NCBI GenBank assembly: GCA_016204995.1 | Contig: JACQJR010000002.1 | Location: 96,551 to 160,550 of the forward strand | DNA: 64,000 nt | Direction: 5' to 3' | DNA from: Candidatus Microgenomates bacterium | GTDB taxonomy: Bacteria; Patescibacteriota; Microgenomatia; UBA8517; JACQJR01 | Position numbers and translations under genes: made by a program | In this document: in pieces, positions 7,525 through 56,145 of the stretch | Layout of the letters: every line of letters begins with the position of its first letter | How positions within the stretch are numbered: the stretch's first letter is position 1 | The notes under the pieces: generated by a model | What the model was told of the DNA's origin: nothing | Databases searched by the model: none | What the model saw: only the letters and a program-made list of their open reading frames with translations

Positions 7525-7594
7525 AAATTTAGGTTATTAGGTTACTGGGCTATTAGGCTCTTGGGCCTAATACTAATTATATCATAGTTGAAAA

Positions 7595-9109
7595 CTAATT
7601 AGGCAACTCATTTTTGAAAATATCTTCTGCCATTTTAACAATATCTTCCTCGCTCGCTGGCGCTACCACATTTTCTATACTTTCTTCCTGAACAATCACA
7701 GGCTTCTCGCCTAACAAGAAAATCACTTTAGCGATGTTATCATCTATAACTTGAGCAGCCATCTCCTCAATTATTCTCCTATTTCCATTCTCTTCCAATT
7801 TATCTTTATGAAAACGATAAAAAACAGAAATAGTTAAAGTTTCACCCTCTATACCAATAGGCTTGGCCGAATGCAAAAGAGCTGCTAAAGAATTATTTTT
7901 TAATTTAACTTTCGCCAATAATTCCTTCCACTGCCCATCCGTAACCTCAACCTTCTTCGAAGAAGTTGGACTAGTTGACGCCACCTCTTTCACCTTAGAA
8001 GTTGAGTGCGCCGATGAGTGAAAGTCTGAAGTGTCCGAGGCAGCTCCGAGAGACTGTGAGGATTTCCCATTTTCCCCCCCACACCACTCCACCACCGCCA
8101 GTTCCAACGGCAGTTCAGCAATCGGAGAAATACGCATTTGATCACAGGCAAGTATTAATAAGTTAATTAATTTATTAATTTCTCCAACATTTAATTTAAC
8201 ATCATCTTTAGCTTCTTTTACTTTTAAGGTACTTAGTAATATTTGATGTAATATTTCAATTAATTGAATGGTATATTGACGGATATTTACTCCTAAATTT
8301 ACGGCTTTCTCTATTTCTTCTAAAGATTTTCTGCTATTTTGATTAATTAAAAATGTCAGCAGCATATTGGGATCGGCTTTTGTTTGCAATAAAGTTGATT
8401 CCAGCTTTTCAATCGTGATCTTACCATCTTCTGCTAGTTGCTCCAGCATCTTAATTCCATCTCTAAAACTACCTTCTGCCGCTTCGGCAATCTTTTCTAA
8501 CACTCCTTTATCTACTTTTATTTTCTCTGCCGCCAACACTCGCGACAAAGAATGAATTAATTCTTCATGAGTTGCCTTACTAAATTGAATAATAGTCGTC
8601 CGAGAGCGAATAGTCTCTAAAATCTTAACAAGTTCTGTTGTAGCCAAAATAAATACCGCATGCGGAGGCGGTTCTTCTAAAGTTTTTAGTAAAGCATTGG
8701 AGGCTTCTGTGGTTAACATGTGTGCCTCATCAATAATGTAAACTTTTGTGTGTCCTGCTGGCGGCAATAATTTCACCGCCTCCCTAATTTCCCTAATATC
8801 TTCAATACCCCGGTGACTGGCTGCATCCATTTCTACCACGCTCATTGAAGAACCATTAGTAATTTCCTTACAATTTGTGCATTCGTTACATGGCTCACCA
8901 AGCTTATTCTTACCGATATATTTTTCGCAGTTTAAAATTTTAGCAATAATCCGGGCGGCAGAAGTTTTACCCGTTCCTTTCGGCCCGGCAAAAAGTATGG
9001 CATGAGGGAAAGAGCCGCGCTTGATAAAAGATAAAATTGCCTCTCGGACATACTCTTGATCAAGTTCGGCGGCCTTTTGGGGACGATACTTGACGTACCA
9101 ACTAGCCAT
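7595..9109 (-). CDS. dnaX: DNA polymerase III subunit gamma/tau
   Basis: AAA+ Walker A (GPKGTGKTS), clamp-loader zinc module (CNECTNC), DEAH box. Conserved dnaX-ybaB-recR order. Confidence 0.85.
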   Translation of the reverse strand: MASWYVKYRPQKAAELDQEYVREAILSFIKRGSFPHAILFAGPKGTGKTSAARIIAKILNCEKYIGKNKLGEPCNECTNCKEITNGSSMSVVEMDAASHRGIEDIREIREAVKLLPPAGHTKVYIIDEAHMLTTEASNALLKTLEEPPPHAVFILATTELVKILETIRSRTTIIQFSKATHEELIHSLSRVLAAEKIKVDKGVLEKIAEAAEGSFRDGIKMLEQLAEDGKITIEKLESTLLQTKADPNMLLTFLINQNSRKSLEEIEKAVNLGVNIRQYTIQLIEILHQILLSTLKVKEAKDDVKLNVGEINKLINLLILACDQMRISPIAELPLELAVVEWCGGENGKSSQSLGAASDTSDFHSSAHSTSKVKEVASTSPTSSKKVEVTDGQWKELLAKVKLKNNSLAALLHSAKPIGIEGETLTISVFYRFHKDKLEENGNRRIIEEMAAQVIDDNIAKVIFLLGEKPVIVQEESIENVVAPASEEDIVKMAEDIFKNELPN

Positions 9110-9293
9110 TATAAGTTCTTCTACGCCCTCGCCTTAAAGCTTTCTCCCGTTCGTATCTCTCACGGGAAGGTTTAGTATAACGCTCTCTTTTCTTCCACTC
9201 CAATAGTACTCCTGAATCTAAAACTCTTTTGCGAAATTTGGCAATCAGTTTATCATCTGATTCCCCTGGTTCTTTTTTGACAATTGTTGCCAT
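9102..9293 (-). CDS. rpsU: 30S ribosomal protein S21
   Basis: 63-aa basic protein. KFRKRV..GVLLEWKKRERYTKPSRERYEREKALRR matches the S21 family pattern. Confidence 0.6.
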   Translation of the reverse strand: MATIVKKEPGESDDKLIAKFRKRVLDSGVLLEWKKRERYTKPSRERYEREKALRRGRRRTYNG

Positions 9294-9316
9294 AAATATA
9301 AGTCACCTGCCTTTCT

Positions 9317-9676
9317 CTAATAATCATAATTTATTTTTAAATCTCCCCCTAATAAATGCCAATGTAAATGCTGCACATGCTGTAAACTGCCGCCGTTAAA
9401 ACTCATTCTATATTTATTCTCCACTCCTTTTTCTCTGATTAAGCTTTGGGCCACTCTAGTCATTTCTGAAATAATTGTTTGATGCTTCTCTTCTATTTCC
9501 AGAAAACTAGGAATGTGAACTTTCGGAATAATTAAAATATGTACCTGTGCAGCTGGCTTAGCATCCTCAAAAGCCATGACTCCTTCTGACTCGTAAAAAA
9601 AGGTGGCCGAAATTTGTTTAGCCCCAGGGGCCAAGCTTTGCTTATCCCTAATTTTACAAAAAACACACTCTTCCAC
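9317..9676 (-). CDS. HIT-family (histidine triad) hydrolase
   Basis: C-terminal HLHWHLLGG histidine triad motif. Confidence 0.8.
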   Translation of the reverse strand: MEECVFCKIRDKQSLAPGAKQISATFFYESEGVMAFEDAKPAAQVHILIIPKVHIPSFLEIEEKHQTIISEMTRVAQSLIREKGVENKYRMSFNGGSLQHVQHLHWHLLGGDLKINYDY

Positions 9677-9760
9677 GACTTAATAGTATATACCTTTAAA
9701 AAAAATCCGTCTAGGGGAAATTGGAGTAATGAAGCTAAATTGTGCTACAATACCCAATCC

Positions 9761-10699
9761 ATGAAAGAAATCCAACGAAAATTTTTAGGTGCTGGCCTCG
9801 GCTTTATTCTAACCTTAGCATGCTCTCCTCAAGCTTCTTCACAGATACCAGAACCTCACATTCATCCCTCCTCTACACCACTTCCCACAGCTACACCTGA
9901 AGTAATGACTGGCGAGCAACGAGAAACTTTAAATAAGATTGAACAAGAAGTTACTCGAATTGCCAGAACATTTGCGCCAAACTCTTTGGAACGGAATTTT
10001 TATCTGGAAGATGACATTAGTAAATTTAATTCCTTATTTAAAGAACCTATCTATTTCGGTCTCTTAAACTCCAAGTATGCTTATTTGAGTATTTATTTTA
10101 TTGATCTGGAATACAATGGCCAAAAACGCTTTCGCTTTCTTCCTAATAATGGTCAGCTGGCTAAAAATTACTCCACCATGGAAAGAATGGGCATGCAGAT
10201 AGATTTTTCTACTGACTGGTTAAATATTAAAAGCGATGAAGTCAAAGCGTTAATGTTGAAAAAAATCGCCTTGCAAATGGCACTTTATGACCCGGTATCA
10301 ATTTTGGCATTTAATACTTATAAATTAGAAGGTAAATTTGAGAAATTAAACCCCCAAATTACTGATTTAGAAATAGGCCATACGATAGTTAAAGAATTAT
10401 TTGAATCCCAACCATCGATTAAAAAACAATGGACTCATGCTGCTTATCTGCCCATCCTGTCTGGAGTAGGCCAACTTCTTCAACACCATGATCCAACAAT
10501 CCAACGGGAATTATCTTATGTGGGAATTATTTATCAGTTGGCTGCGGAAAGAAATATTCCGTTTGACTCCGTTCAATTTGGCACAATAGAATTTTTACAA
10601 ATGACTTTTGATCCTAAAGGAGAATGGTATAAGATAGTCTCTTCTCTTCCTGATGAACCCAACCCTGCTTCTCCGACCACACCTAAAAATATTTTTTAG
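9761..10699 (+). CDS. hypothetical lipoprotein
   Basis: Internal ATG at 9761 gives a signal peptide with a lipobox (LTLAC). An extended -10 (TGCTACAAT) lies just upstream. No domain recognised. Confidence 0.5.
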   Translation: MKEIQRKFLGAGLGFILTLACSPQASSQIPEPHIHPSSTPLPTATPEVMTGEQRETLNKIEQEVTRIARTFAPNSLERNFYLEDDISKFNSLFKEPIYFGLLNSKYAYLSIYFIDLEYNGQKRFRFLPNNGQLAKNYSTMERMGMQIDFSTDWLNIKSDEVKALMLKKIALQMALYDPVSILAFNTYKLEGKFEKLNPQITDLEIGHTIVKELFESQPSIKKQWTHAAYLPILSGVGQLLQHHDPTIQRELSYVGIIYQLAAERNIPFDSVQFGTIEFLQMTFDPKGEWYKIVSSLPDEPNPASPTTPKNIF

Positions 10700-14683: not shown

Positions 14684-15185
14684 TGCCACCAAGTTCGAAC
14701 CGGACAAAGCGGACTATTTTAATATTTTCCCCGATTTTAGCAATGACATTAGTCACTAAATCTTTCACTTTTTGCGAAGAATCACGGATATAATCTTGTT
14801 TTTCCAGTTCCGAAATATCTTGAGGATCCATGGAAGCCACTTGCATCGCCAGTTCATGTGCTAAATTTTTAAAATCATCTGTTCTGGCCACAAAGTCAGT
14901 TTCGCAAGCCAGCTCCAGCATCGCACCCACTTTACCGCCGGTATGAATATAAGTATCTACCAGACCTGCCCCGACTGGCCGCTCGGATTTTTTCTCGGCA
15001 ATTTCCACACCGCGTTCTTTTAAAATATCCAGGGCTTTTTTCTCATCCCCGCCGGCTTTTTCTAAAGCCACCCGACACTCGCCGATAGAAACACCGGTCT
15101 TTTCGCGTAAATCTTTAATTTTTTGTAAATCAATTTTCATTTTCGGATTTCGTGCTTCGTGCTTCGGATTTTTGCCCTTGGGCAA
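14676..15185 (-). CDS. tsf: elongation factor Ts (short form)
   Basis: UBA-like N-terminus (IKDLREKTGVSIGECRVALEKAGGD). A TTG start with AGGAG at -7 would overlap the rpsB 3' end across a repeat tract. An alternative ATG lies at 15140. Confidence 0.7.
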   Translation of the reverse strand: MPKGKNPKHEARNPKMKIDLQKIKDLREKTGVSIGECRVALEKAGGDEKKALDILKERGVEIAEKKSERPVGAGLVDTYIHTGGKVGAMLELACETDFVARTDDFKNLAHELAMQVASMDPQDISELEKQDYIRDSSQKVKDLVTNVIAKIGENIKIVRFVRFELGGNE

Positions 15186-24883: not shown

Positions 24884-26474
24884 TTATCGGCGCGGCCACC
24901 GACGATCCCTCACCGCCTCCTTCCACAATAGAGGTGACTACAATTTCTGGATTTTCTGCTGGCGCGAATGATGTAAACCAAGCGTGAGCTTTCTTTTTAT
25001 CATCCCCGAATTCAGCCGTTCCGGTTTTGCAAGCCACCGGCACTTTGAAATTAAAAAATACTCCTGCAGTTCCCCCGGGACTGCAAGCCCCGATCATCCC
25101 CTGTCTAATAACCTCAATCGTCTTCTGTTTTAATCCAATATCCTCACATTGGAAATTGGAAAGAAGCGAAGCTTGGCCTTTCAGGCTTGGAAATTGGAAA
25201 TTCTGCAAATCATCTTGCTTCATTATATGAGGAATGCACTTTTTACCACCTGATGCTATTATCCCAGTCATTACTGCTATCTGTAAGGGAGTCGCGGCAA
25301 CATCTCCTTGCCCAATTGCCATATGATAAGTATTACCCAAAAACCAACGTTCGCCCCGATTTCTTTCTTTCCAATCCGGGGTGGGAATTATACCGGCGGT
25401 TTCTCCAGTAAGTTCAACATTAGTTTTGGCTCCTAGCCCAAATTTTTTGGCCCACTCGGCTAACTTTTCCACCCCCACCCATTCACCCACCTTATAAAAG
25501 AAAGTATCTGTGGAACGGGTAATGGCGCTGACTATGCCAATTTCTCCTTCGGTCCGGCCGTATTTAGTAAAATACCAGTTATTATATTTAAAAGTCCCCA
25601 CCTGAATAAAACCGTTATCGGTAAATTTAGTAGTTTCATCTACTTTACCTTCTTCCAATCCTGCTGCCGACACTACTATTTTAAAAGTAGAACCAGGCGG
25701 GTAACTTCCACCAATGGCCCGATTAAATAACGGCTGATCGGGGTTAGCAATTAAACTGGCATAATTTGTGGCAAAATTATTGGGGTCAAACGATGGATAA
25801 GAGACTAAAGCTAATATTTCACCAGTGCCAGGATTTAATGCCACTACCGCTCCCTTTCGTTCTCCTAGAGCCGCTGCCGCTGCCTGTTGTAAGAACAAAT
25901 CAATTGATAATTTAACATCTTGTCCTTTTTGGGCCTCGCGCCGGCCCAACACCCGTACTTTGTTGCCTCGGCTATCTACTTCAACCAGCTCTTCTCCATT
26001 TTTACCCCGCAATAAACAATCAAAGGCGCTTTCTGCTCCTATTCTGCCAATTTCATCACCGATTTGATAAACGCTATTCGGGCATTCCGATTGGCCTAAT
26101 TCTTCACGAGTTGCTTCCCCGACATAACCAACTAAATGTGCTGCAACTGTTGCGACCGGATAAGTCCTATCCCAAACCAAAATAGCTACATCATTCTCCG
26201 AATCTTTAATTTCTTGGCCATCTATTAATGAAGCTGCTTTACCCGCTTCAAAATGTAAAATTTTTTTTGTCTGGCTATTTTGAGCCAATGGCATTCCATT
26301 ACGATCCAAAATTAAACCCCTTGGAGCGTGAATAGGAATAGCCCTAATTCTATTATTACGAGCTAAAGTTTGATAATAACCACCCCTGATTAAAGAAACA
26401 TCAATTAAACGAGCCGCCAGCACTAAAAAAATAATTAACGTGGCAATGGTCAACAAGCTTTTTCTCCACTCCAT
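24849..26474 (-). CDS. penicillin-binding protein 2/FtsI-type transpeptidase
   Basis: N-terminal TM anchor, SxxK (STFK), SxN, KTGTA motifs. Confidence 0.85.
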   Translation of the reverse strand: MEWRKSLLTIATLIIFLVLAARLIDVSLIRGGYYQTLARNNRIRAIPIHAPRGLILDRNGMPLAQNSQTKKILHFEAGKAASLIDGQEIKDSENDVAILVWDRTYPVATVAAHLVGYVGEATREELGQSECPNSVYQIGDEIGRIGAESAFDCLLRGKNGEELVEVDSRGNKVRVLGRREAQKGQDVKLSIDLFLQQAAAAALGERKGAVVALNPGTGEILALVSYPSFDPNNFATNYASLIANPDQPLFNRAIGGSYPPGSTFKIVVSAAGLEEGKVDETTKFTDNGFIQVGTFKYNNWYFTKYGRTEGEIGIVSAITRSTDTFFYKVGEWVGVEKLAEWAKKFGLGAKTNVELTGETAGIIPTPDWKERNRGERWFLGNTYHMAIGQGDVAATPLQIAVMTGIIASGGKKCIPHIMKQDDLQNFQFPSLKGQASLLSNFQCEDIGLKQKTIEVIRQGMIGACSPGGTAGVFFNFKVPVACKTGTAEFGDDKKKAHAWFTSFAPAENPEIVVTSIVEGGGEGSSVAAPITKQVLESYFAN

Positions 26475-31573: not shown

Positions 31574-33637
31574 ATGCCACAAAAACTAATTGCCTTTTTC
31601 TACTACGCTTTGTTTTTCTTTACTCCGCTTTTATTTAATAAAGCCAACTCCGAACTTTTTGAACTGCCAAAAATGTACTTTGTCTGGGTAATTACTATTA
31701 TCATTGTCAGCTTGTGGCTAGTTAGAATAATCGCCGAAAAGCGAGTTATTTTTCAGCGAACATTTTTAGATATTCCTCTAATTTTATATCTAATATTTCA
31801 ATTAATTAGCACCTACTTTTCAATTGATCAATACACTTCTATTTGGGGATATTATTCCAGACTTAACGGCGGATTGATATCAACTATTAGCTATTTACTA
31901 CTTTATTGGGCCTATATTTCAAATTTAACCACCCAAAATACCCTATCTGCTCTTAAATTCCTGTTAATTTCTGGTTTACTAGTAGCTTTATGGGGGATTC
32001 CTAGTCATTTTGGCTATGACCCGAATTGTGTTCTTTTTGGCTACAACCTAACCACCAATTGCTGGAGCACCCAATTTGTACCAACTGAACGCATCTTTTC
32101 CACTTTGGGTCAACCAAATTGGCTGGCCAACTGGCTCGTAGCGCTCATGCCATTAACTTGGGCCATGTTTTTCACCTCTAAGATCAAAAATCTAAAATCT
32201 AAAATCTTTTATCTATATTTAAGTCTTATCCTAATAATAGCTATCATCTTCACCAGAAGTTCCTCCGGTTTTCTGGGATTAGTGGTAGCATTAGTAGTTT
32301 TTACCACCCCGCAAATTCTACACTTATTCAAGAAGGGGAAATTTCTTGTTTGGTTAACAATCTTACCCATTTTAACTATGTCTATATTTTTTGTGCAAAA
32401 ATTACCCAAAGTTGTCAATGGACTAAAATCTTGTACAGAAATTTTGACTTCTGAAGGCGAGTCGCACATTAATAGTAATATTACTCCTTCTAGTGACATC
32501 CGCTGTATTGTCTGGAAGGGTGCTTTTGATATATGGCGGCATTATCCATTAATTGGTAGTGGGCCGGAAACTTTTGCTTATTCCTATTACCAATTCCGTC
32601 CGGCTATCCATAACTTAACCAGCGAATGGGACTTACTTTATAATAAAGCCCATAATGAGTATCTTAATTTCTTGGCTAATAGTGGCCTAGCTGGTTTAAC
32701 AACATATTTAATTTTAATTATTATGGCTTTTTGGCTATTAGGCTCCTCGGCTCTTAGGAAAAACCCAACAGCCCTGCCTGCGCAGGCAGGCCAACGGCCT
32801 AATGCCCTAATAGCCTGGGGTTTACTCGCTGGTTTTGCCAGCCTTCTCGTCACCAACTTTTTCGGCTTTTCCGTCGTTGCCACTCAACTGCAATTTTTCT
32901 TATATCCGGCAATGGTGATAGGGCCACTGGGCTCTTGGGACGCTAGGCAATCGGACAATCAAAGGCCTAACGCCCTTCAAGTCATTTTAATTTTTCTAGT
33001 ATTATTTATTACCATCTTTCTGTTAGTTAAAATCTATCATTATTACCAGGCCGATCTTCATTACAGCCGGGCCCAAACTTTAGAAGATAATCAACAATAT
33101 GTGGATTCATTATCCGAAATTAGAAAAAGTCTCAACCTGCGACCAAATGAGCCATTATATAAAAACGAATTATCAGTTATTCTTTCATCGCTATCATTCT
33201 TAACTGCCAAAACCGATAGTGATCTTAGCGCCCAAATGACCAATATTGCTATCACATCTTCCGATCAAGCGCTAGCAACTTCGCCCTACAATCTTAATTT
33301 TCTCAAAAGTCGGGCCAGTATGTTTATTAAACTCTCCCAGCCGCAAGAGGCGATCAAAACCTTAGAATATGCCCAAAAACTCGTCCCTACCGAGCCCAAG
33401 ATTGCTTATAATCTAGGTCTAACCTATATACAACTGGATCAAAATGATCAAGCCATTCAGGAGTTTAAAAAAGCTACTCAACTTCGCCCCTTATACCGCG
33501 ACGCCTGGTTAGCACTCGGACTGGCCCAGTGGCAAAAAGGTGATAAAACTACCGCCCGCCATACTTTAAATTACATTTTGCAAAATATTGACTCCCAAGA
33601 TAAAGAGGTTCTAGAACAGCTCAAAAAGTGGAAATAA
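31574..33637 (+). CDS. O-antigen ligase (Wzy_C)-like polytopic membrane protein with C-terminal TPR repeats
   Basis: Many TM helices, a large periplasmic loop, C-terminal TPR-like repeats. Contains the in-frame palindrome CCTGCCTGCGCAGGCAGG (LPAQAGQ) and 9-mer repeat inserts. Confidence 0.5.
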   Translation: MPQKLIAFFYYALFFFTPLLFNKANSELFELPKMYFVWVITIIIVSLWLVRIIAEKRVIFQRTFLDIPLILYLIFQLISTYFSIDQYTSIWGYYSRLNGGLISTISYLLLYWAYISNLTTQNTLSALKFLLISGLLVALWGIPSHFGYDPNCVLFGYNLTTNCWSTQFVPTERIFSTLGQPNWLANWLVALMPLTWAMFFTSKIKNLKSKIFYLYLSLILIIAIIFTRSSSGFLGLVVALVVFTTPQILHLFKKGKFLVWLTILPILTMSIFFVQKLPKVVNGLKSCTEILTSEGESHINSNITPSSDIRCIVWKGAFDIWRHYPLIGSGPETFAYSYYQFRPAIHNLTSEWDLLYNKAHNEYLNFLANSGLAGLTTYLILIIMAFWLLGSSALRKNPTALPAQAGQRPNALIAWGLLAGFASLLVTNFFGFSVVATQLQFFLYPAMVIGPLGSWDARQSDNQRPNALQVILIFLVLFITIFLLVKIYHYYQADLHYSRAQTLEDNQQYVDSLSEIRKSLNLRPNEPLYKNELSVILSSLSFLTAKTDSDLSAQMTNIAITSSDQALATSPYNLNFLKSRASMFIKLSQPQEAIKTLEYAQKLVPTEPKIAYNLGLTYIQLDQNDQAIQEFKKATQLRPLYRDAWLALGLAQWQKGDKTTARHTLNYILQNIDSQDKEVLEQLKKWK
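32772..32789. repeat. 18-nt perfect palindrome CCTGCCTGCGCAGGCAGG in-frame in the Wzy-like membrane protein
   Basis: Encodes ALPAQAGQ. Flanked by GGCCTAATGCCCTAATAGCC 9-mer repeats. Confidence 0.6.
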
Positions 33638-36550: not shown

Positions 36551-36620
36551 AAAAAAGGCACCTTGGGGTAGATAAATTAGAGAATAAGTTATCTGTTCTC
36601 GGTTTTCAGTGTTCAGAATT
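36551..36620 (+). repeat. Element Y copy C (partial/degenerate)
   Basis: AAGCAAATTGGCCAAGAAAAAAGGCACCTTGGGGTAGAT 5' part matches copies A and E. The 3' half is degenerate (TTCAGTGTTCAG). Confidence 0.4.
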
Positions 36621-36655
36621 AGGTTTATCAGTAATCAGTTTACCAGTCAGTTATA

Positions 36656-37030
36656 CTAACTAAACTTTTTCCAAGTAGAGTGAAGCTTATTTAGCCTCCG
36701 GGAAAGTACCTTATATCTATCAATTAAGTCATCACAATCCTCTACTTTAATCCGAGTGAATGTTTTAGCTACGATTTTAATCTCCCGCAGATGGGTAATA
36801 ACTTCATCGGAAGAGCCAATGGCCATGGAAAGGAAGCGACAAAATTCGCGTGGAGAAGTTTTCTTACCGAATCCTTCGGCAATTTGAGGTGCAATCTTTT
36901 CCGCGGCTTCATTTAACTGATATCTCAATCTTTTGTAGATCGGTGGTAAGAGATTTGTTAAACTATAAACTGGATCAAGTAATTCTAAAGATAAATTGTA
37001 AACTTCCAAGTCTGTTACATCCTTAATCAT
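36656..37030 (-). CDS. four-helix-bundle protein (TIGR02436 / 23S rRNA intervening-sequence protein family)
   Basis: LEVYNLSLEL..LRYQLNEAAEKIAPQIAEGFGKKTSPREFCRFLSMAIGSSDEV matches the family pattern (QL.RAA.SI..NIAEG..R.S..EF..FL.IA.GS..E). 65 nt downstream of the ATPase, same strand. Confidence 0.65.
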   Translation of the reverse strand: MIKDVTDLEVYNLSLELLDPVYSLTNLLPPIYKRLRYQLNEAAEKIAPQIAEGFGKKTSPREFCRFLSMAIGSSDEVITHLREIKIVAKTFTRIKVEDCDDLIDRYKVLSRRLNKLHSTWKKFS

Positions 37031-37095
37031 ACTGATAAACAGAAAAACTGGTAAACTATTATCTGATAACTGACACCCGAAAACCGATCACTGAC

Positions 37096-39441: not shown

Positions 39442-39647
39442 ATGGAAGATTGTATCTCCCTTATCTTTTTGTCCAGCCGACTAAGACAGTCATTGGGCTT
39501 CTCGAGAGGGCATTCGCCGTAAAGGTGGTTCACCCACTCCATGTCATCCCGATCCTTCAACGAGATTACACTTACCTCCTTGACTGCGTAACCAGCAATC
39601 TCATCGACCTCCTTTTCTGTCAGACAAGCCTCAACTACCGAAGCCAT
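39429..39647 (-). CDS. hypothetical small acidic protein (GC-rich)
   Basis: 72 aa, RBS GGGAGGG. Confidence 0.35.
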   Translation of the reverse strand: MASVVEACLTEKEVDEIAGYAVKEVSVISLKDRDDMEWVNHLYGECPLEKPNDCLSRLDKKIREIQSSITTE

Positions 39648-40365: not shown

Positions 40366-40959
40366 ATGAGTGTCCAGAAAATTTTGACAGTGCAGAATCC
40401 GGTTTTGCGGACATCGGCTAAAAAAGTCACCCAATTTGATAAACGAATTGAACGGTTAATCACTGATTTAATTGATACTTTAAAAGTGCAAAAAGACCCC
40501 ATCGGAGTCGGTCTTGCTGCTCCTCAAATTGGCAAGTCCATAAGACTTTTTGTCGCTAAATTGGGTAAGGATATTATTCCCTTTATAAATCCGGAAATTA
40601 CTTGGAAATCTGAAAACACTAACGACCCAAAACCAACTAAACGTTTTCCTAAGAGCCTAGAAGCCCAAGAGCCCATAAGCCCCGAATACATCATGGAAGG
40701 ATGTCTGTCTCTTCCCCATTTTTACGGCCCAGTCCAGCGGGCCCACCAAGTCACAGTTCGTTATCAGACTCCAAAATTGGAAATTGGAAATTGGAAATTG
40801 GAAATTACGACGAAGTCGTTTAGTGGGCTGGCCGCGCAAATTATTCAACACGAAACAGACCATTTAAACGGCACATTATTTATTGATAATTTACTTCATC
40901 AAAAGCGTAAACTTTATAAATGGGAAGGCAAAGAATGGGAAGAAGTGGAATTACCGTAG
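40366..40959 (+). CDS. def: peptide deformylase
   Basis: Motifs GVGLAAPQIG, EGCLS, HETDHLNG. Contains in-frame repeat-derived inserts (KSLEAQEPISP, and a (GGAAATT)n tract encoding KLEIGNWKLEI). Confidence 0.85.
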   Translation: MSVQKILTVQNPVLRTSAKKVTQFDKRIERLITDLIDTLKVQKDPIGVGLAAPQIGKSIRLFVAKLGKDIIPFINPEITWKSENTNDPKPTKRFPKSLEAQEPISPEYIMEGCLSLPHFYGPVQRAHQVTVRYQTPKLEIGNWKLEITTKSFSGLAAQIIQHETDHLNGTLFIDNLLHQKRKLYKWEGKEWEEVELP

Positions 40960-41004
40960 GCAATTCAGGGCGTTAGGACATTAGGTATTTAGGCTCTTAG
41001 GCAT

Positions 41005-41367
41005 ATGAGCGATTTTACCAAATTAAAAATATGGCAGAAATCTCACGAATTATCATTGGAGGTTTATCATCTTACTGCAAAACTACCTAAAGAAGAAACT
41101 TTCGGCTTAATGTCACAGTTACGCCGAGCAGCAGTATCAGTAGAATCTAATATTGCCGAGGGCGAATCAAGATTTAGTAGTAAGGATAAACTAAATTTCT
41201 TTATCCAAAGTCGCGCATCTATCGGCGAGGTCCAGACACAATTACTTTTAGTAGCTGATTTATATCAGCAATTAAAGAGTAAAGCTTTACAATTAAAAGA
41301 AGAATATACTAATCTTTATAAACAAATAAATAGTCTTGTTTCTTATAGAAGAAAAAACGATTTATGA
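41005..41367 (+). CDS. four-helix-bundle protein (23S rRNA IVS protein family)
   Basis: KLKIWQKSHELSLEVYHLT..QLRRAAVSVESNIAEGESRFS family pattern. Inserted between def and fmt. Confidence 0.65.
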   Translation: MSDFTKLKIWQKSHELSLEVYHLTAKLPKEETFGLMSQLRRAAVSVESNIAEGESRFSSKDKLNFFIQSRASIGEVQTQLLLVADLYQQLKSKALQLKEEYTNLYKQINSLVSYRRKNDL

Positions 41368-42431
41368 ACCCTAACAGCCCAAGAGCCCTGCCTGCGCAGG
41401 CAGGCCAACAGCCCAAGAGCCCTCCTCTCGTTTTTTTCAGCACACCAGACTATGTGCTGCCAGTATTGGAACAGCTAAAAAATGCCGGTTATGAAATTGC
41501 AGCTATTGTTTCCCAGCCACCCAAACCAGTTGGCAGGAAACAAATTTTAACACCAACTCCTACTGCTGTTTGGGCTAGCCAAAATAACATCCCCAATCTT
41601 GATGCTTCACCTAAAACTTTAATTGAACCTTTACAAAAAATTGGCGCGACCATTGCCATTCTGGCTTCCTACGGCCGGATTATTCCGCAGGCAATTATTG
41701 ATGTTTTTCCACAAGGCATCTTAAATATTCACCCCTCACTTTTACCAAAATTTCGCGGTGCTTTACCGGTAGAAGGAGCATTGGTAGCAGGCGAAAGCGA
41801 AACCGGCGTGACTATTATCAAATTGGATGCCGAAATGGATCATGGTCCCATTGTTTCTCAAATTACCGAAAAAATTAATAAGGATGACACTAAAATTACT
41901 TTAAGAAAAAGATTATTTGAAAAAGGGGCCGCTGAATTAATTAAAGTCTTACCAGACTACTTAGCTGGCAAAATCGCACTGCAAGAACAAGATCACACTC
42001 AAGCTACTTATACCACTTTGATGAAAAAAGAATACGGCTTTATCCCGCCGCAATATTTGGAAGCTGCATTTAAAGGTGAGACTTTAGAGGAAAAATGGCC
42101 CATCCCATTCATAAAAGACTTTTCCCTAGTACCTAGTGCCTATTCCCTTCACAATTTTATCCGTGCTATTAACCCCTGGCCCGGAGCATACACTGAAGTA
42201 ATACTACCAATAAATACCAATACTACCAATAAGCAAAGCTTGGCCCTTCGGGCTAATTACCAATCAACTAAAAAAAGATTAAAAATTCTGAAATCTCACT
42301 TAGAAAACCTAGTAGCCCAAGAGCCTAATGCCCCAACAGTCCACTTAGTGCCTGACTTGGTCCAATTAGAAGGCAAAAATCCCGTTTCTTGGCAACAATT
42401 TAAACAAGGCTACCCCAACTTCACTTTCTAA
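41364..42431 (+). CDS. fmt: methionyl-tRNA formyltransferase
   Basis: Formyltransferase core (NIHPSLLPKFRGALPV) and a C-terminal Fmt domain. The N-terminal extension contains the CCTGCCTGCGCAGGCAGG palindrome (ALPAQAGQ). ATGA overlap with the upstream gene. Confidence 0.85.
   Translation: MNPNSPRALPAQAGQQPKSPPLVFFSTPDYVLPVLEQLKNAGYEIAAIVSQPPKPVGRKQILTPTPTAVWASQNNIPNLDASPKTLIEPLQKIGATIAILASYGRIIPQAIIDVFPQGILNIHPSLLPKFRGALPVEGALVAGESETGVTIIKLDAEMDHGPIVSQITEKINKDDTKITLRKRLFEKGAAELIKVLPDYLAGKIALQEQDHTQATYTTLMKKEYGFIPPQYLEAAFKGETLEEKWPIPFIKDFSLVPSAYSLHNFIRAINPWPGAYTEVILPINTNTTNKQSLALRANYQSTKKRLKILKSHLENLVAQEPNAPTVHLVPDLVQLEGKNPVSWQQFKQGYPNFTF
41387..41404. repeat. 18-nt perfect palindrome CCTGCCTGCGCAGGCAGG in-frame at the fmt N-terminus
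   Basis: Encodes ALPAQAGQ. Flanked by CAGCCCAAGAGCCC repeats. Confidence 0.6.
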
Positions 42432-43592: not shown

Positions 43593-43767
43593 ATACTGGA
43601 AATTATACTGAAAAATAAGTTAAAATACAAGAAGAATTAACCTAATTGCTCTAACGCGAAGCGCCAAGTTTTGCTTAATTAACCTAATTCCTAAATAAAT
43701 CCTAATGACTAAATTGGGAAATTTCCTAATCTTGGGATTTAATTAGGTTAATTAGAAATTTAAAACT

Positions 43768-44813: not shown

Positions 44814-44897
44814 CTTAAATAGTGATGGGTTATGGGTTGTGAGTTATGGTTATGGACAAATATTCCGAACTCATCACTTTGAACCCATAACTATCTG

Positions 44898-44969: not shown

Positions 44970-44993
44970 CATAATATAATGATGAGTTGAAGG

Positions 44994-45365
44994 TTGGGGG
45001 TTATGAGCGAGAATAATGGATTTAGATTTGAAGAATTACAAGTTTACCAAAGAGCTTTAAATTTTGCGAATGAAGTTTATGAAATCAGCAACCAATGGCC
45101 CAGAGAACATGTTTTTTCTTTAACAGATCAATTAAGAAGAGCATCACTCTCTGTAGCCTTAAATATTGCTGAAGGAGCAAGTAGAACTAAATTAGAATTT
45201 AAAAGATTTATAACTATTAGTAGGGGTTCCTGTCATGAATGCATCCCTATTATAGAAATAGCTTTTAGGCAAAAATTAATTGATATAAAAAGAAAGGAGG
45301 TATGGTTAAACGAGGTTACAACATTATCTAAAATGTTAAGTAAACTTAAGAGTTCAATAGTTTAA
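44994..45365 (+). CDS. four-helix-bundle protein (23S rRNA IVS protein family)
   Basis: ELQVYQRALNFANEVYEIS..QLRRASLSVALNIAEGASR family pattern. Inserted between tRNA-Thr and rpmG, flanked by 9-mer tandem repeats. Confidence 0.65.
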   Translation: MGVMSENNGFRFEELQVYQRALNFANEVYEISNQWPREHVFSLTDQLRRASLSVALNIAEGASRTKLEFKRFITISRGSCHECIPIIEIAFRQKLIDIKRKEVWLNEVTTLSKMLSKLKSSIV

Positions 45366-45399
45366 ATCATAACTATGAACTCTAAACTCATAACTAACT

Positions 45400-45573
45400 A
45401 TGGCTAAAAAGGGAGCAAGACAATTAATCGCCTGGGTGTGTTCCGTTTGTAAATCGCAAAATTATATTAGCGAAAAAAATAAAACCAATACACCAGATAA
45501 AATGAAAATAAATAAATTTTGTAAAAAATGCCGCAAACACACCGAGCATCGCGAAAGCGATAAATTAGACTAA
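45400..45573 (+). CDS. rpmG: 50S ribosomal protein L33 (zinc-ribbon type)
   Basis: 57-aa ORF not in the provided track: MAKKGARQLIAWVCSVCKSQNYISEKNKTNTPDKMKINKFCKKCRKHTEHRE. Matches L33 C4-type (C..C..NYI..KNK...P....KFC..C.KHT.H.E). Conserved position just before tRNA-Trp-secE-nusG. Confidence 0.7.
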   Translation: MAKKGARQLIAWVCSVCKSQNYISEKNKTNTPDKMKINKFCKKCRKHTEHRESDKLD

Positions 45574-45780: not shown

Positions 45781-46059
45781 GTGATTGTAGCGAGCTATAC
45801 TTATTTCGTATACTACTTTTACATTCTCCGCAGCCTTAAAAATGGAAAGTTATACCTCGGTCAAACTTCCGACCTAAAAGCAAGAGTTAAATCCCACAAT
45901 AATGGAGAAAATAAAGCAACAAAACCAAATATCCCTTATGAACTTATCTTTTATTCTGCTTTCAAAGATGAAAAGGATGCAATTAATTGCGAAAAATATT
46001 TTAAGACAACAGCAGGCTGGAAAAGAATTCATAAAATGCTTGAGAACATAATAAAATAA
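45781..46059 (+). CDS. GIY-YIG nuclease-domain protein (small, stand-alone)
   Basis: YFYILRS..GKLYLGQTSDLKARVKSHNNG..E.Y.K matches the GIY-YIG (YxY..G.YIG.T.DL..R...H) pattern. The N-terminal ~10 codons of the ORF may not be translated. Confidence 0.55.
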   Translation: MIVASYTYFVYYFYILRSLKNGKLYLGQTSDLKARVKSHNNGENKATKPNIPYELIFYSAFKDEKDAINCEKYFKTTAGWKRIHKMLENIIK

Positions 46060-48159: not shown

Positions 48160-48720
48160 ATGAAGATTAAAGATTTTCGTGAGCGACCGCTCCTATTCAT
48201 TGATTTAGAAATGTCCGGCCTTAATCCTTTGATCCATGAAATTTTAGAAGTTGGGGTATTAGTAGTAGATGGCAAGACTTTGGGAATAAAAGCCGAGTAT
48301 GAAGCCAAAGTCAAACCAGAACATATTGAAACTGCCGATCCGCTGGCCCTGCGTATCAATGGCTATAAAACAGAAAACTGGAAAGACGCTAAACCATTAA
48401 AAAAAATTTTAGAAGATTTAAATAAACTGGCCCCCGAGGGCATGATTGTTGGTTTTAACGTCGTCTTTGACTCCATGTTTTTAGATTTGGGATTTCGTAA
48501 ATTTAATATCAAGCCCAACTTTGATTACCATATTTTAGATGTCTTAAGTTTGGCCTGGGCTTATGTTTTACCTGACAGTAACGTCCACGAAGTAAAACTA
48601 TCAACTCTTTGTAAACATTTTGGCATTGAGCGAAAAGAAAAACACCGGGCGTTGGCAGATATTAAGGCGACATACGAGCTTTTTACAAAGCTCATGGGCA
48701 TTAGGCAATTGGGTAATTAG
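48160..48720 (+). CDS. DEDDh 3'-5' exonuclease (DnaQ/epsilon-like)
   Basis: Exo I (LFIDLEMSGLNP..EILEVG), Exo II, Exo III (HRALADIKATYELF). Confidence 0.75.
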   Translation: MKIKDFRERPLLFIDLEMSGLNPLIHEILEVGVLVVDGKTLGIKAEYEAKVKPEHIETADPLALRINGYKTENWKDAKPLKKILEDLNKLAPEGMIVGFNVVFDSMFLDLGFRKFNIKPNFDYHILDVLSLAWAYVLPDSNVHEVKLSTLCKHFGIERKEKHRALADIKATYELFTKLMGIRQLGN

Positions 48721-48982
48721 GCTATTAGGTTTTCTGACCTAGGAGCCAAAGAGCCTAACGCCCTAAAAGCCTATTACTCCAGCTTTCTACAAATTCTTTC
48801 CGATCGCAAATAAAACAAATAAAATGTCAAGTTTCAGGTGTCCTACCTAAACCACCTCTAAGGTGATTAATCCTTGACACCTATTTAACCAAAGAAAAAA
48901 GCGCTCTTGGTATAAAACCCATCATTAAAAAATGATGTCCGATTACTCGGCAAGAGCGCTTACTAATTTAGTTGCGAGATTG

Positions 48983-54587: not shown

Positions 54588-54679
54588 TTAATTCTTCACC
54601 ACCTTTCATAATAAATTCGAAATCACAAATCCGAAATACTAAATAAATTCAAAAGTTTTGAATTTTGAAAATTCAAATT

Positions 54680-55219
54680 TTAGGATTGTTTCGAATTTAG
54701 TGCTTCGGATTTCGTGCTTAAGATATAAACTAATTTAGACATATTTGCCTGTAATGTACCAGTTAACTGGTACATTGGCGCGTTTAATACCCCCAGCAGT
54801 TGTCCAAATAAAACTTCGCGGCCCGGCAAACGCGATAATTTCAGAAGTGCTGCCGCGTCCTGAACCGTGCCGGAAATAATTCCTGCCTTGAGAGCTAGTA
54901 ATTCAAATTCTTTGATAAATTTACCCAAAACTTGAATTGGTGCCAGCTCATCTTGCTGGGCAATTACTATCGCAGTCTGACCAGTTAAAGACGAAACAAT
55001 ATTATCTGATAATTCTTTTAAATTAGAAGCTACCAGCGATCTTTTCAGAAGAGTATTTTTAGCCACCAGCATTTTACTGCCAGCCTCGCGCAACCGGCGG
55101 CGTAAAGTCTCCTGCTCACTAACTTTCAAGCCAGTTAAATTTACCAAAACGAGCGATTTAGCGTCATTAATTTTGGCTGTTAAGTCGTTTACAAAAATGA
55201 TTTTTTCTGGTTTTTTCAT
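54680..55219 (-). CDS. rplJ: 50S ribosomal protein L10
   Basis: L10 family pattern. Immediately upstream of rplL on the same strand. Confidence 0.85.
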   Translation of the reverse strand: MKKPEKIIFVNDLTAKINDAKSLVLVNLTGLKVSEQETLRRRLREAGSKMLVAKNTLLKRSLVASNLKELSDNIVSSLTGQTAIVIAQQDELAPIQVLGKFIKEFELLALKAGIISGTVQDAAALLKLSRLPGREVLFGQLLGVLNAPMYQLTGTLQANMSKLVYILSTKSEALNSKQS

Positions 55220-55270: not shown

Positions 55271-55445
55271 AAAGATCTAAATTCTAATATCTAAAATCTA
55301 GATGAGGTGCCTCGGTGAGATTTATTACGTTCATGTAACTGAACGTAACTCACTGTCTTAAGCTTTCATTTATTTTAACACACAAAGGCCCCTGTTGCAA
55401 GTTGCACACAAGGGCCGCCGAGAAGTCAAGTCCGGCGAAGCCGGG

Positions 55446-55553
55446 CTATTCCTCCTCCTCTTCCTCATCCTTTTTCTCTTCTTCCTCCTCCTCTTCCTCT
55501 TCATCCTCATCTTCATCATCAGCTAATTTCATTACGACATCATCTTGCATCAT
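55446..55553 (-). CDS. possible acidic leader micro-ORF (35 aa: MMQDDVVMKLADDEDEDEEEEEEEEEKKDEEEEEE)
   Basis: Not in the track. Strong SD AGGAGGTG 7 nt upstream. Directly downstream of the Element X copy 2 promoter, upstream of the structured rplJ leader. Confidence 0.3.
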   Translation of the reverse strand: MMQDDVVMKLADDEDEDEEEEEEEEEKKDEEEEEE

Positions 55554-55594
55554 TTTCTTCTCACCTCCTTTATAAACTTGACCACAGCCAAGTG

Positions 55595-55722
55595 GGACAC
55601 AGTATAAAAATGAGCCTCTCGTCTGTCAAGGGGCAACTGTGCAAGCAGTTGTCCCGCACCCGCCATGATAACGCTCCTTGAGCCGCAGTAAGAATTTACT
55701 AAGGCGAAAAGTAAGTATCGGC
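55595..55722 (-). promoter_or_regulatory. Element X copy 2 (inverted) with sigma70-like promoter (TTGACA-N17-TATACT) reading toward rplJ
   Basis: The reverse complement is near-identical to copy 1 over ~100 nt, including the GGGGCAACT..AGTTGCCCC hairpin and the CTCAAGGAGCGTTATCATGGCGGGTGCGGG segment. Confidence 0.5.
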
Positions 55723-55849
55723 AGGAAGAGAGCAAAAATTTCCCACTTGACAGAGTTACGACTTATTTGATACCTTCTTGTACAGTCTTTCCGCCTTTTC
55801 CGGCGAAGCCGGATTCGGCGAGACAAGTCCCGCCCACTAGAAAGTCATA

Positions 55850-56062
55850 ATGTCGCCCGCCAGAAAAATTAAACTTGACGATTTGCCAGATTTATTAACA
55901 GTTCGCGAAGTCTCCGAAGTTTTGCGCGTTTCTCCACTCACGATTAAACGCTGGGGCAAGCGTGGTAAACTTCCACCCATTAGAATTAACAGCCGCGGCG
56001 ATCGCCGCTATAAAAAAGAACAAGTATTGTGGTTATTGGGAATCACGGCAAAGACAGAATAG
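55850..56062 (+). CDS. excisionase/AlpA-family helix-turn-helix DNA-binding protein
   Basis: LLTVREVSEVLRVSPLTIKRWGKRGKLPPIRINSRGDRRYKKEQV matches the HTH_17/Xis pattern. Confidence 0.55.
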   Translation: MSPARKIKLDDLPDLLTVREVSEVLRVSPLTIKRWGKRGKLPPIRINSRGDRRYKKEQVLWLLGITAKTE

Positions 56063-56064
56063 CA

Positions 56065-56145
56065 AAAGGCTCCTTGGCTCTTAGGCTACTAGGCTCTTTG
56101 GTAAAATTCTTCCTAATGACCTAATAGCCCAATGCCCCAAAAGCC
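56065..56145. repeat. tandem degenerate 9-11-mer repeats (GGCTCTTAGGC / GCCTAATAGCC family)
   Basis: GGCTCCTTGGCTCTTAGGCTACTAGGCTCTTTGG...CCTAATGACCTAATAGCCCAATGCCCCAAAAGCC. The same family occurs at 7528-7575, 32735-32765, 40963-41002, 44822-44892, 48698-48775 and in-frame in def, fmt and the Wzy-like gene. Confidence 0.5.

Follow-up and report, generated by a model that had tools for sequence, protein, structure and literature searches.

The short tandem repeats of the analysed window, a stretch of 64,000 nucleotides, are probably the arms of stem-loop cassettes of the intervening-sequence (IVS) type and of derivatives that lack the ORF or one arm. In its full form, a cassette consists of a four-helix-bundle (4HB) gene of about 120 aa (PF05635/TIGR02436, encoding the 'S23p' protein originally discovered in 23S rRNA intervening sequences) between two arrays in inverted orientation, each made of degenerate tandem units of 7 or 8 nt. 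The window contains three such full cassettes, in addition to at least eight hairpins without an ORF and several solo arms. The arms and the gene form one heritable unit, which is found in differing genomic contexts. The observation made in a first-pass annotation is partly confirmed and its interpretation is partly supported: the repeats are real and non-random, yet they were mis-described.

Inspection of the sequence revealed degenerate short tandem arrays at all ten sites named in that annotation, and their abundance is above chance (64 TRF rows in the window vs 14.5 in Markov-1 shuffles). A position-weighted scan gave 13 three-unit TTAGGCNN arrays, where 0.3 were expected. Units are 8 nt long in the main family, YTRGGCTN (for example TTAGGCTC), and 7 nt long in the remaining families. 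For the GGCTCTTAGGC family, the TRF period was 8/16 and the logo from 61 units reads T-T-A/G-G-G-C-T-N, also 8 nt. TRF rows exceeded the shuffles at period 7 (14 vs 2.1) and period 8 (8 vs 1.75), and periods 14 and 16 were in excess as well. The unit had wrongly been described as a 9-11-mer. Period 9 is mildly enriched (8 vs 1.8), and no enrichment was seen at periods 10 (2 vs 2.85) and 11 (4 vs 2.45). It had been correctly stated that the arrays differ from CRISPR and that the 7-mer tracts are related phenomena. GGCTCTTAGGC and GCCTAATAGCC had been taken as two variants. They are actually reverse complements of each other, and their inverted pairing produces hairpins. The unit family at sites 44822 and 45360 is a separate one, GTTATGRG / CYCATAAC. 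The units of one array are about 70-75% identical.

The arrays occur mainly in inverted pairs that fold as imperfect hairpins. Three inverted pairs bracket intact PF05635/TIGR02436 genes (41005-41367, 44994-45365 and 36656-37030), and the other arrays form hairpins without an ORF, or stand as solo arms, within operon spacers, at gene ends and in variable protein loops. This architecture and its statistical excess are shown by the data. The inverted pairing and the genes within three pairs had been overlooked. The parts of the cassettes, with a hairpin neighbouring cassette 2, are:

40965..41004, + strand: left arm of cassette 1, located after the def stop and ahead of the 4HB-1 start; five octamers, TCAGGGCG TTAGGACA TTAGGTAT TTAGGCTC TTAGGCAT
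41005..41367, + strand: 4HB-1 (PF05635 23S_rRNA_IVP / TIGR02436), inserted between def and fmt
41367..41424, + strand: right arm of cassette 1; GCCTAA-type octamers with a nested 18-bp palindrome at 41387-41404
44815..44897, no strand assigned: ORF-less hairpin of the ATGGGTT family between tRNA-Tyr and tRNA-Thr; fold z -4.4
44975..45002, + strand: left arm of cassette 2; units GATGAGTT GAAGGTT GGGGGTTATGAG
44994..45365, + strand: 4HB-2, a PF05635 gene downstream of tRNA-Thr(ggt)
45366..45400, + strand: right arm of cassette 2, previously listed as site 45360; CATAACT ATGAACT CTAAACT CATAACT AAC
36590..36655, - strand: downstream arm of cassette 3
36656..37030, - strand: 4HB-3, a PF05635 gene adjoining a TrwB-like coupling-protein gene
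37031..37095, - strand: upstream arm of cassette 3; heptamers of GTCAGTN / ATCGGTT type on the sense (-) strand

4HB-1 matched Pfam (E 3.4e-31), TIGR02436 (E 2.8e-31) and the PDB entry 2GSC, XCC0516 (E 6e-16). The Pfam E values of 4HB-2 and 4HB-3 were 9.4e-31 and 2.5e-15, respectively, and both matched TIGR02436. The ATG at 45003 is the likely start of 4HB-2. When whole cassettes were folded as RNA, the paired arms built a terminal stem that closed the ORF in cassette 1 (z -2.6), in cassette 2 (z -2.0) and, with a long stem, in cassette 3 (z -3.4). Translation of the right arm of cassette 1 gives fmt 18 additional N-terminal residues, which are missing from the fmt of the relatives L085-L088. 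The same arm has a 51-nt stretch in common with the ORF-less Wzy element (alignment score 72, compared with at most 38 for shuffles). The 4HB-3 protein is 76% identical to its homologue in the relative L004. DNA identity between cassette 3 and L004 was 31% in the left flank, 63% in the left arm, 69% in the ORF, 51% in the right arm and 35% in the right flank, and this profile marks the boundaries of the cassette as a unit. A target-site duplication was absent at this sole mapped boundary pair.

Further elements, with no strand assigned, lie in spacers or at gene ends:

7529..7577: ORF-less octamer hairpin in the dnaX-ybaB spacer; fold z -2.9
15146..15175: solo heptamer array, TTCGGAT TTCGTGC TTCGTGC TTCGGAT, at the rpsB-tsf junction
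43636..43760: CCTAAT / ATTAGG element without an ORF, in the spacer between rpmB and the M50 peptidase gene
48693..48782: octamer hairpin at the 3' end of an RNase T-like exonuclease gene, whose last 8 codons and TAG stop come from the array; fold z -2.4
54600..54720: heptamer hairpin of the TTCGGAT / TTCGTGC family in the rplJ-rplL spacer; fold z -3.8
56065..56148: octamer hairpin separating two convergent genes, an HTH ORF (end at 56062) and a UppS-like gene (stop at 56149-56151); minus-strand fold -38.9 kcal/mol, z -5.0

Others, likewise without strand, are located inside ORFs:

25146..25203: two ATTGGAA arrays around octamer-type units GCTTGGCC TTTCAGGC, inside the PBP2 gene
32714..32818: ORF-less element in the Wzy/TPR gene, consisting of left arm, palindrome (32773-32790) and right arm; wholly translated
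32911..32977: second array pair in Wzy
40645..40684: solo arm in def, encoding PKSLEAQEPISP in a loop of variable length across the clade
40774..40806: GGAAATT x4.7 in def, encoding KLEIGNWKLEI
42305..42344: solo octamer arm in fmt, encoding VAQEPNAP

The arrays inside ORFs are translated, as the first-pass annotation had claimed. The encoded peptides align with variable loops of the relatives' proteins, and the only usable start codon of fmt is an ATG upstream of the array. On the other hand, a 9-nt periodicity does not explain the tolerance in frame. The period is 8 or 7, and therefore consecutive units are in different reading frames; no reading frame of a perfect TTAGGCTC array or of its complement is free of stops. 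The copies borne by ORFs are stop-free variants within length-variable loops. They probably persist because of this placement and the loss of stop-forming units. The RNA folds of the in-ORF pairs were no better than those of shuffles (z -0.9 for 32714..32818 and z -0.6).

The repeats also occur beyond the window, and the relatives L001, L004 and L085-L088 are rich in such arrays. L001 has an array at the same Wzy loop as 32911..32977, AACCTAAT x4.8 at the fmt position of 42305..42344 and a hairpin at the same place as 48693..48782 in the exonuclease gene. In def, L085 carries AAGCTAA x4.6 in the loop of 40645..40684, and the position of 40774..40806 is occupied by GAAAATG x4.9 in L088 and by AACCTAAT x2.5 in L001. 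These orthologous positions are shared by genomes with 53-60% identity in their def, Wzy and fmt proteins, and two 99.94%-identical assemblies showed no copy-number change over 20.6 kb. The arrays are therefore more likely to be old, persistent elements, and the active short-repeat expansion proposed earlier is not borne out. The def-fmt junction holds a full cassette in the window, an ORF-less hairpin in L001 and nothing in L004 and L085-L088, where def and fmt abut or overlap. The situation is reversed in the rpmB-M50 spacer, where the full cassette (a 4HB gene with heptamer arms) is that of L001 and an ORF-less hairpin is present in the window. The PF05635 genes of L001 and L004 are likewise bracketed by inverted arrays. 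The sites are thus long-lived, while 4HB occupancy and unit sequence turn over.

A survey was carried out with 74 PF05635 loci from Acidobacteriota, Bacteroidota, Cyanobacteria, Planctomycetota, CPR and others, drawn from the best 80 matches to one subfamily and mostly from Acidobacteriota. The same gene-plus-repeat arrangement is present in many bacterial phyla. At 45 of the 74 loci the flanks were more complementary than 99% of the shifted controls, and significant arm complementarity was absent at the other 29. The arrays of L063 and L077 are direct, not inverted, and the cyanobacterial loci L014 and L018 are flanked by TTAGTTA-type arrays. Period-7 arrays were present in 47 of 148 flanks (31.8%), compared with 2.3% of shifted windows and 6.0% of other-ORF flanks in the same loci. 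The corresponding values for period 8 were 6.8%, 0.5% and 1.4%, and other periods were near zero in the surveyed flanks. For 54 of 56 loci, the nearest-neighbour protein belongs to a locus of equal period. Among the ten period-8 loci, nine are paired in this way with a neighbour of period 8 (permutation p < 2e-4), and some of these pairs cross phyla. The period, 7 or 8, follows the phylogeny of the PF05635 protein and is a trait of the cassette lineage. Arm duplex energies gave no strand bias (sense vs antisense, 38 vs 39 loci); therefore, there is no indication of selection on RNA rather than DNA. We found no paper giving a general link of the PF05635 gene family to heptamer or octamer arrays.

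Judging from the IVSs of Coxiella, Leptospira and Salmonella, the arms would pair in the transcript as a long imperfect stem that is cut by RNase III. Since the Coxiella 23S rRNA IVS has the same layout and is excised by RNase III, such excision would, by analogy, be the most likely mechanism here. The cut would free the cassette from its host RNA, such as the def-fmt mRNA, a tRNA precursor or the rplJL mRNA, and insertion would thereby be tolerated even in essential operons. Several arrays of the window are solo, and stem formation is impossible for them. The tandem 7-8-nt structure may originate and be renewed by slippage together with arm-to-arm correction, with a bound protein possibly setting the register.

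It is quite improbable that active replication slippage by itself keeps making and expanding repeats genome-wide, with tolerance in ORFs arising from a unit length that is a multiple of three. Short tandem arrays are indeed about 4-fold over-represented, the 40774-40806 heptamer is perfect over 4.7 copies, Coxiella strains differ in heptamer copy number (PMC4990558) and, in work that PMC4692102 cites, heptamer excess is ascribed to polymerase slippage. However, the period is 8 or 7 rather than 9-11, the arrays are degenerate, and the orthologous sites and the unchanged near-identical assemblies speak against ongoing expansion; slippage alone also leaves the inverted pairing and the tie to one gene family unexplained. 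An artefact of assembly or polishing is hardly credible. The window derives from a metagenome-assembled genome, but the same architecture recurs in independent assemblies and many phyla, array-containing ORFs remain open, and the array-coded segments align with relatives.

The ORF-less elements could instead be MITE-like non-autonomous transposons, with the arrays as terminal inverted repeats and a putative transposase acting in trans. Inverted termini, small size, forms with and without the ORF, varied contexts of the cassette unit, the sequence common to the Wzy element and the cassette-1 arm and the differing site occupancy among relatives would fit. We consider this unlikely, because arm sequences vary between copies even in one genome and offer no conserved terminus for transposase recognition. 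Moreover, near-identical copies, target-site duplications (at the one mapped boundary pair) and a recombinase were not found for these elements, no transposase/RAYT domain was present among the 33 window ORFs scanned with Pfam, and the fold of the 4HB protein is that of neither a nuclease nor a recombinase. Finally, the arrays may be candidate protein-binding platforms for regulation or nucleoid/RNA organisation, each 7-8-nt unit being occupied by a single subunit of a nucleic-acid binder that is oligomeric or cooperative (either the pentameric 4HB protein or an OB-fold / cold-shock protein), with hairpins being secondary. Conservation of the period but not of the sequence is consistent with this, and period tracking 4HB phylogeny is expected under protein-array co-evolution. 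Furthermore, the distant homologue Avd and its reverse transcriptase jointly bind nucleic acid (PMC10053308), and CspB binds to heptamer repeats, one protein on each unit, as discussed in PMC4679880. We regard this as rather unlikely. 4HB genes are far fewer than ORF-less arrays, joint inheritance of arms and gene could by itself make period and phylogeny co-vary, and unit sequences are unrelated between cassettes, so that binding would have to be non-specific or fast-evolving.

Among known systems, Avd of diversity-generating retroelements has a distantly related four-helix-bundle fold. Its matches to the window 4HB proteins (E 2e-4 and 5e-7) score far below the curated Avd cut-off of 80 bits, and, unlike in Avd systems, no reverse transcriptase or template/variable repeat pair lies near the window 4HB genes. 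REP/BIME, MITEs and Rickettsia palindromic elements are small palindromes in operon spacers and gene ends, and the Rickettsia elements also occur in frame in ORFs and are translated. Their sequence is conserved per genome, and REP and MITEs have a cognate transposase. In contrast, the window elements share period and symmetry, not sequence. Cyanobacterial STRR and Beggiatoaceae TAACTGA are tandem heptamers of patchy phyletic spread, mostly intergenic and often just before start codons (PMC4679880). They have been described chiefly as direct repeats of one dominant sequence, with no inverted pairing or enclosed gene noted. The Xanthomonas GGGAATC and Nostoc GGGGAYT heptamers are abundant and mostly intergenic, and keep their positions between species while length and sequence vary (Rehm et al. 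2015, PMC4692102). In Xanthomonas, 70-75 convergent inverted pairs are potential stem-loops, and a GGGAATC x4 array overlaps the start codon of XCC0516, the crystallised PF05635 member (supplementary table, PMC4692102). These repeats were studied as G-quadruplex formers and the gene-family link was not drawn (PMC4692102). One unit dominates each of those genomes, whereas the window has several unit families, with the octamer as the main one, and many in-ORF copies.

The closest layout is that of the S23p 23S rRNA IVSs of Coxiella burnetii and Leptospira, which share the PF05635 ORF within stem-forming terminal inverted repeats and the tandem heptamers 5' of the ORF; RNase III cleavage in the stem is a feature of the IVS and would apply here by analogy. 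The Coxiella IVS has an S23p ORF, 3-4 tandem GACAGAT heptamers on the 5' side and a 28-bp terminal stem, and is cleaved by RNase III at the first repeat (PMC4990558). 23S_rRNA_IVP ORFs have also been reported from CPR 16S and 23S insertions (PMC11270868). Unlike the rRNA IVSs, the window cassettes lie outside rRNA, either in the def-fmt operon or adjoining tRNA genes or a conjugation-type gene. Their arms are long arrays of degenerate 7-8-mers, accompanied by many ORF-less or solo derivatives, some of which are translated.

The short tandem repeats of the window are the arms and relics of cassettes of the intervening sequence (IVS) type, which carry a gene for a four-helix-bundle (4HB) protein between two inverted arrays of degenerate units. 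The observation of the arrays in the first-pass annotation was real but mis-measured, and its interpretation was right only in part. When the sequence was read, a degenerate array was present at every position reported to have one (7528, 32735, 32930, 40963, 41370, 42320, 44822, 45360, 48698, and 56065). The gene names def, fmt, Wzy_C+TPR protein, PBP2, rpsB, tsf, rplJ, and rplL were borne out by Pfam, which also gave dnaX, ybaB, an RNase T-like exonuclease, and an UppS-like gene. A cyanobacterial source was rejected, since the window has just two HIP1 sites and its def matches a Candidatus Microgenomates protein with full identity. Tandem Repeats Finder (TRF) returned 64 rows in this DNA (G + C ~40%) compared with 14.5 in Markov-1 shuffles. 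The over-represented periods were 7 (14 vs 2.1) and 8 (8 vs 1.75), together with 14 and 16, and the excess at period 9 was mild (8 vs 1.8). The proposed unit of 9–11 nt was not supported, since periods 10 and 11 were at expectation and the main family is an octamer. The logo of this “GGCTCTTAGGC / GCCTAATAGCC” family, built from 61 units, is T45 T53 A36/G18 G59 G59 C39 T36 N, and a position-weighted scan found 13 three-unit arrays where 0.3 were expected. The two quoted motifs are reverse complements of each other. The position-weighted scan was needed because strict self-similarity misses the TTAGGC family with its unit-to-unit identity of ~70–75%. Maximum-order Markov k-mer enrichment in the window was uninformative for units so degenerate.

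Most sites combine a TTAGGC-type array with a GCCTAA-type array that begins 0–30 nt after it. Therefore, the element is an imperfect hairpin. The intergenic hairpins showed folding z values from –2.0 to –5.0, and the two array pairs inside the Wzy ORF reached just –0.9 and –0.6. The same architecture with another unit (GTTATGRG) was found at 44822 and 45360, and a third unit family, TTCGGAT/TTCGTGC, occurs in the rplJ-rplL spacer and at the rpsB-tsf junction. The hairpin at 56065–56148 adjoins a pair of convergent genes at their stop codons. A promoter/terminator scan showed no excess, and the hairpins were not classed as terminators.

Three inverted pairs each enclose an intact gene of ~120 aa for a PF05635 / TIGR02436 “four helix bundle protein”, the S23p protein known from intervening sequences in 23S rRNA. 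The genes are as follows.

41005–41367: 4HB-1, four-helix-bundle gene of cassette 1 (Pfam E 3e-31, TIGR02436)
44994–45365: 4HB-2, four-helix-bundle gene of cassette 2 (Pfam E 9e-31, TIGR02436)
36656–37030, minus strand: 4HB-3, four-helix-bundle gene of cassette 3 (Pfam E 2.5e-15, TIGR02436)

The protein is homologous to the crystallised XCC0516 (PDB 2GSC), which 4HB-1 matched with an E value of 6e-16. One cassette lies at the def-fmt junction, one follows tRNA-Thr, and one neighbours a TrwB-like gene. In the RNA folds of the whole cassettes, the arrays make a terminal stem closing the ORF (z –2.6, –3.4, and –2.0). The Rfam matches in the window were tRNAs only, and PADLOC matched no defence system there. 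A scan of viral contigs with its chosen patterns found no relatives. In two loci of relatives, L001 and L004, the PF05635 genes are also bracketed by arrays, with different heptamer units.

The arms and the 4HB gene move together as a unit. 4HB-3 is 76% identical to a homologue in L004 that stands in a different neighbourhood. Their DNA identity is 31% in the left flank, 63% in the left arm, 69% in the ORF, 51% in the right arm, and 35% in the right flank. This profile indicated that the homology begins and ends at the outer array edges; no target-site duplication was visible at these mapped boundaries. The sites themselves persist, and their content changes. In five relatives (L004 and L085–L088), def and fmt overlap or abut, which is likely the ancestral state, and the same junction carries a full cassette in the window and an ORF-less heptamer hairpin in L001. 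In the rpmB-M50 peptidase spacer, an ORF-less CCTAAT/ATTAGG element of the window corresponds to a 4HB gene with arms in L001. The relatives have arrays at the same sites in def (two loops), a fmt loop, a Wzy loop, and the 3' end of the exonuclease. The def, Wzy, and fmt proteins of these genomes are just 53–60% identical to those of the window, whose def has its nearest relatives at ~60% identity. Over 20.6 kb, no difference in array length was found between L001 and L002, which come from 99.94% identical assemblies. The shared sites, the turnover, and the stability between L001 and L002 argue against the currently active expansion that had been suggested, and favour old elements kept or renewed in place.

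The tolerance of arrays inside ORFs had been attributed to a 9-nt, three-codon period. However, the unit period is 8 or 7, so that successive units change frame, and every frame of a perfect TTAGGCTC array contains a stop, as does every frame of its complement. Therefore, the three-codon explanation fails. The ORF-borne arrays occupy loops of variable length among relatives and lean to TTGGG/CCCAA variants over TTAGG/CCTAA. Stop-forming (TAG/TAA) units account for 39% in ORF-borne and 64% in intergenic arrays, which is a trend only (p = 0.075). The right arm of cassette 1 is certainly translated, because the ATG at 41364, overlapping the stop of 4HB-1, is the only plausible fmt start. The array-coded fmt extension consists of 18 residues and is missing from L085–L088. 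In the exonuclease, the last eight codons and the TAG stop come from an array. The GGAAATT tract in def is not a conserved coding segment but an array, which the relatives share at the orthologous site with drifted units. A separate 14-aa insertion in fmt (NTNTTNKQSLALRANYQS, window 42200–42270), not present in six relatives, is coded by a true period-9 array (AATACTACC x3.4) and then octamer-like units. It is the sole clear 9-mer array linked to an insertion.

The association was surveyed with one genome per species. The locus search was seeded with a two-sequence alignment, an alignment of five 4HB proteins being too divergent, and returned 80 PF05635 loci, 74 of them scorable. Most are from Acidobacteriota, and the others are from Bacteroidota, Cyanobacteria, Planctomycetota, CPR, and further groups. 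Complementarity between the left and right flanks exceeded the 99th percentile of shifted controls at 45 of the 74 loci. Period-7 arrays appeared in 31.8% of PF05635 flanks compared with 2.3% of shifted windows and 6.0% of other-ORF flanks in the same loci; the values for period 8 were 6.8, 0.5, and 1.4%. Periods 5, 6, and 9–11 were nearly absent from PF05635 flanks. The units are unrelated from locus to locus (e.g. GGAAACA, CTCTTAG, TTAGTTA, GTACGTT, and AGGGAGT). The period is inherited along with the 4HB protein: it equals that of the nearest-neighbour protein at 54 of 56 loci, and 9 of the 10 period-8 loci group together (permutation p < 2e-4), some with neighbours from different phyla. 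The closest relatives of 4HB-1 (L005–L007) all have octamer arms, as in the window. The architecture is not uniform. The gene of L005 is located within one hairpin arm, and in L063 and L077 (both at 1380–1960, with AAACAAAT and CCTTGAAA, respectively) octamer arrays of the same orientation, not inverted, flank the PF05635 gene on both sides. There, the gene seems to interrupt a single unbroken tandem array and not to occupy a hairpin loop.

In the mechanism that we propose, the elements of the window would be cassettes of the IVS kind residing outside rRNA. By analogy, the array stem could be a substrate of RNase III, and its cutting would free the host transcript from the cassette, so that insertions into essential operons would be tolerable. 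The duplexes of sense and antisense arms were compared for RNA-level selection and showed no asymmetry, the energies being dominated by background. Slippage with arm-to-arm correction and a protein bound in the register of the units are both candidate origins of the 7/8-nt periodicity. The tracking of the 4HB phylogeny by the period is suggestive of in-register protein binding; simple co-inheritance of arms and gene could also explain it.

Several other features were observed in the window. An 18-bp palindrome, CCTGCCTGCGCAGGCAGG, occurs at 922–939, 32773–32790, 41387–41404, and 62254–62271 (three exact copies and one with 2 mismatches; 0.02 expected). All copies are inside ORFs and code for ..LPAQAG... 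Octamer arrays enclose two of them but not the other two, and the palindrome thus seems to be a small dispersed element of its own. Similar hairpins of ~75 nt, AAAGGCACC...GGTGCCTT, each then followed by TATTCAGTTGTG, are found at 33845–33935 and 39335–39445 (also 63371–63393). As direct repeats, they bracket an island of ~5.6 kb with small ORFs, DUF3800, 4HB-3, and a TrwB-like type IV coupling protein, which is missing between Wzy and def in L001. The island could have integrated as one element with the hairpins as att-like ends; alternatively, the hairpins may be a repeated structured RNA. At 57557–58159, a PaaX_M/Cas2-like + HTH gene (57596–58159, minus strand) is placed between 39-nt inverted repeats, each holding an 18-bp palindrome (TGACACTTTGTTTCCGAT/ATCGGAAAGAAAGTGTCA); this gene family adjoins the TrwB-like gene in L085. 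A free-standing GIY-YIG domain ORF (92 aa, 45781–46059), just 3' of tRNA-Trp and cassette 2, is possibly a homing-endonuclease-like gene in the tRNA cluster. The UppS-like protein (56149–57429) has 426 aa, with the prenyltransferase domain at residues 20–238 only and no Pfam match in its C-terminal ~190 residues. A TCC/TCT-rich low-complexity tract (55450–55521, ~70 nt, period 3/6/21) lies upstream of rplJ, where the region has no convincing ORF.

The excess of heptamer repeats in bacteria has been known since the cyanobacterial STRR, and we know of no accepted origin or function for it. Likewise, the large PF05635 “23S rRNA IVS protein” family has a solved structure and, to our knowledge, no known function. 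The typical nesting of the gene in inverted 7/8-nt arrays joins the two puzzles and offers a testable model in which RNase III processes the cassettes and the protein possibly binds the arrays. One element type would explain the low-complexity inserts of CPR bacteria in essential proteins (def, fmt, PBP2, and Wzy), the fmt start supplied by a cassette arm, and the structured spacers in ribosomal-protein and tRNA operons. Such arrays can also mislead the prediction of CRISPRs and gene starts. The family and the bacterial heptamers may also fit a wider and perhaps new generalisation, which is tentative and which we consider rather doubtful as a whole: PF05635 genes with inverted 7/8-nt arrays would form a widespread cross-phylum cassette class, of which the rRNA IVS would be only the first-noticed special case; the heptamer excess (STRR, GGGAATC, TAACTGA, and the window arrays) would largely be cassette arms or relics; and the 4HB protein would be coupled to the arrays by binding, generating, or maintaining them, with one unit per subunit. 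No paper stating a general association of PF05635 with heptamer arrays was found in a literature search that left most subscription journals outside, and novelty is not proven. The STRR and TAACTGA heptamers of Cyanobacteria, Beggiatoaceae, and Bacteroidetes were described with no explanation (PMC4679880), and the 23S_rRNA_IVP family was twice reported as “CRISPR-associated” (PMC3936711, PMC10910872). In the supplement of Rehm et al. 2015, repeat #15 (GGGAATCGGGAGTGGAGAATCGGGAATC) of X. campestris ATCC 33913, with four units at 622956–622983, overlaps the start codon of XCC0516 (PMC4692102). The overlap passes without comment by the authors (PMC4692102).

The arrays and their genes were also compared with other known systems. 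A CRISPR array has direct repeats of ~23–50 nt and unique spacers of similar length, whereas the window arrays are 7–8-nt units set head to tail with spacers absent, as the first-pass annotation had recognised. Contingency-locus repeats, which underlie phase variation, are near-perfect and vary in copy number among close strains, shifting frame or promoter spacing. They were rejected because the arrays are degenerate, their copy number is equal in L001 and L002, and orthologous sites are conserved, although the sample is small. A MITE would have near-identical copies with conserved terminal inverted repeats, target-site duplications, and an autonomous partner coding for a transposase. Here, the arm sequences differ between copies, just one pair shares 51 nt, and the mapped boundary has no duplication, so this candidate is unlikely. 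No transposase domain was found among the 33 window ORFs scanned with Pfam. The DGR accessory protein Avd would score above the NF033474 cut-off of 80 bits and have an adjacent reverse transcriptase with template/variable repeats. It was dismissed, as the scores were 21.7 and 30.1 bits and the neighbouring genes showed no RT domain.

In Xanthomonas, GGGAATC heptamers are arranged as inverted pairs, and different species keep them in the same positions (PMC4692102). Convergent pairs on opposite strands, with positions kept between relatives, were likewise found in the window, but its main family has 8-nt units instead of 7-nt units. An IVS of the S23p type shares with the window cassettes the PF05635/TIGR02436 protein and an ORF enclosed by stem-forming terminal inverted repeats. 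It sits in a helix of 23S (or 16S) rRNA, whereas the window cassettes are outside rRNA. 23S_rRNA_IVP ORFs are also present in rRNA insertions of CPR bacteria (PMC11270868). The closest characterised system is the IVS of Coxiella burnetii. It has an S23p ORF with three to four tandem GACAGAT heptamers 5' of it in strain-variable number, and a 28-bp terminal stem, and RNase III cuts at the first repeat (PMC4990558). Compared with the known IVS, the window cassettes are new in their non-rRNA location, in being octamer-based, and in being partly translated.
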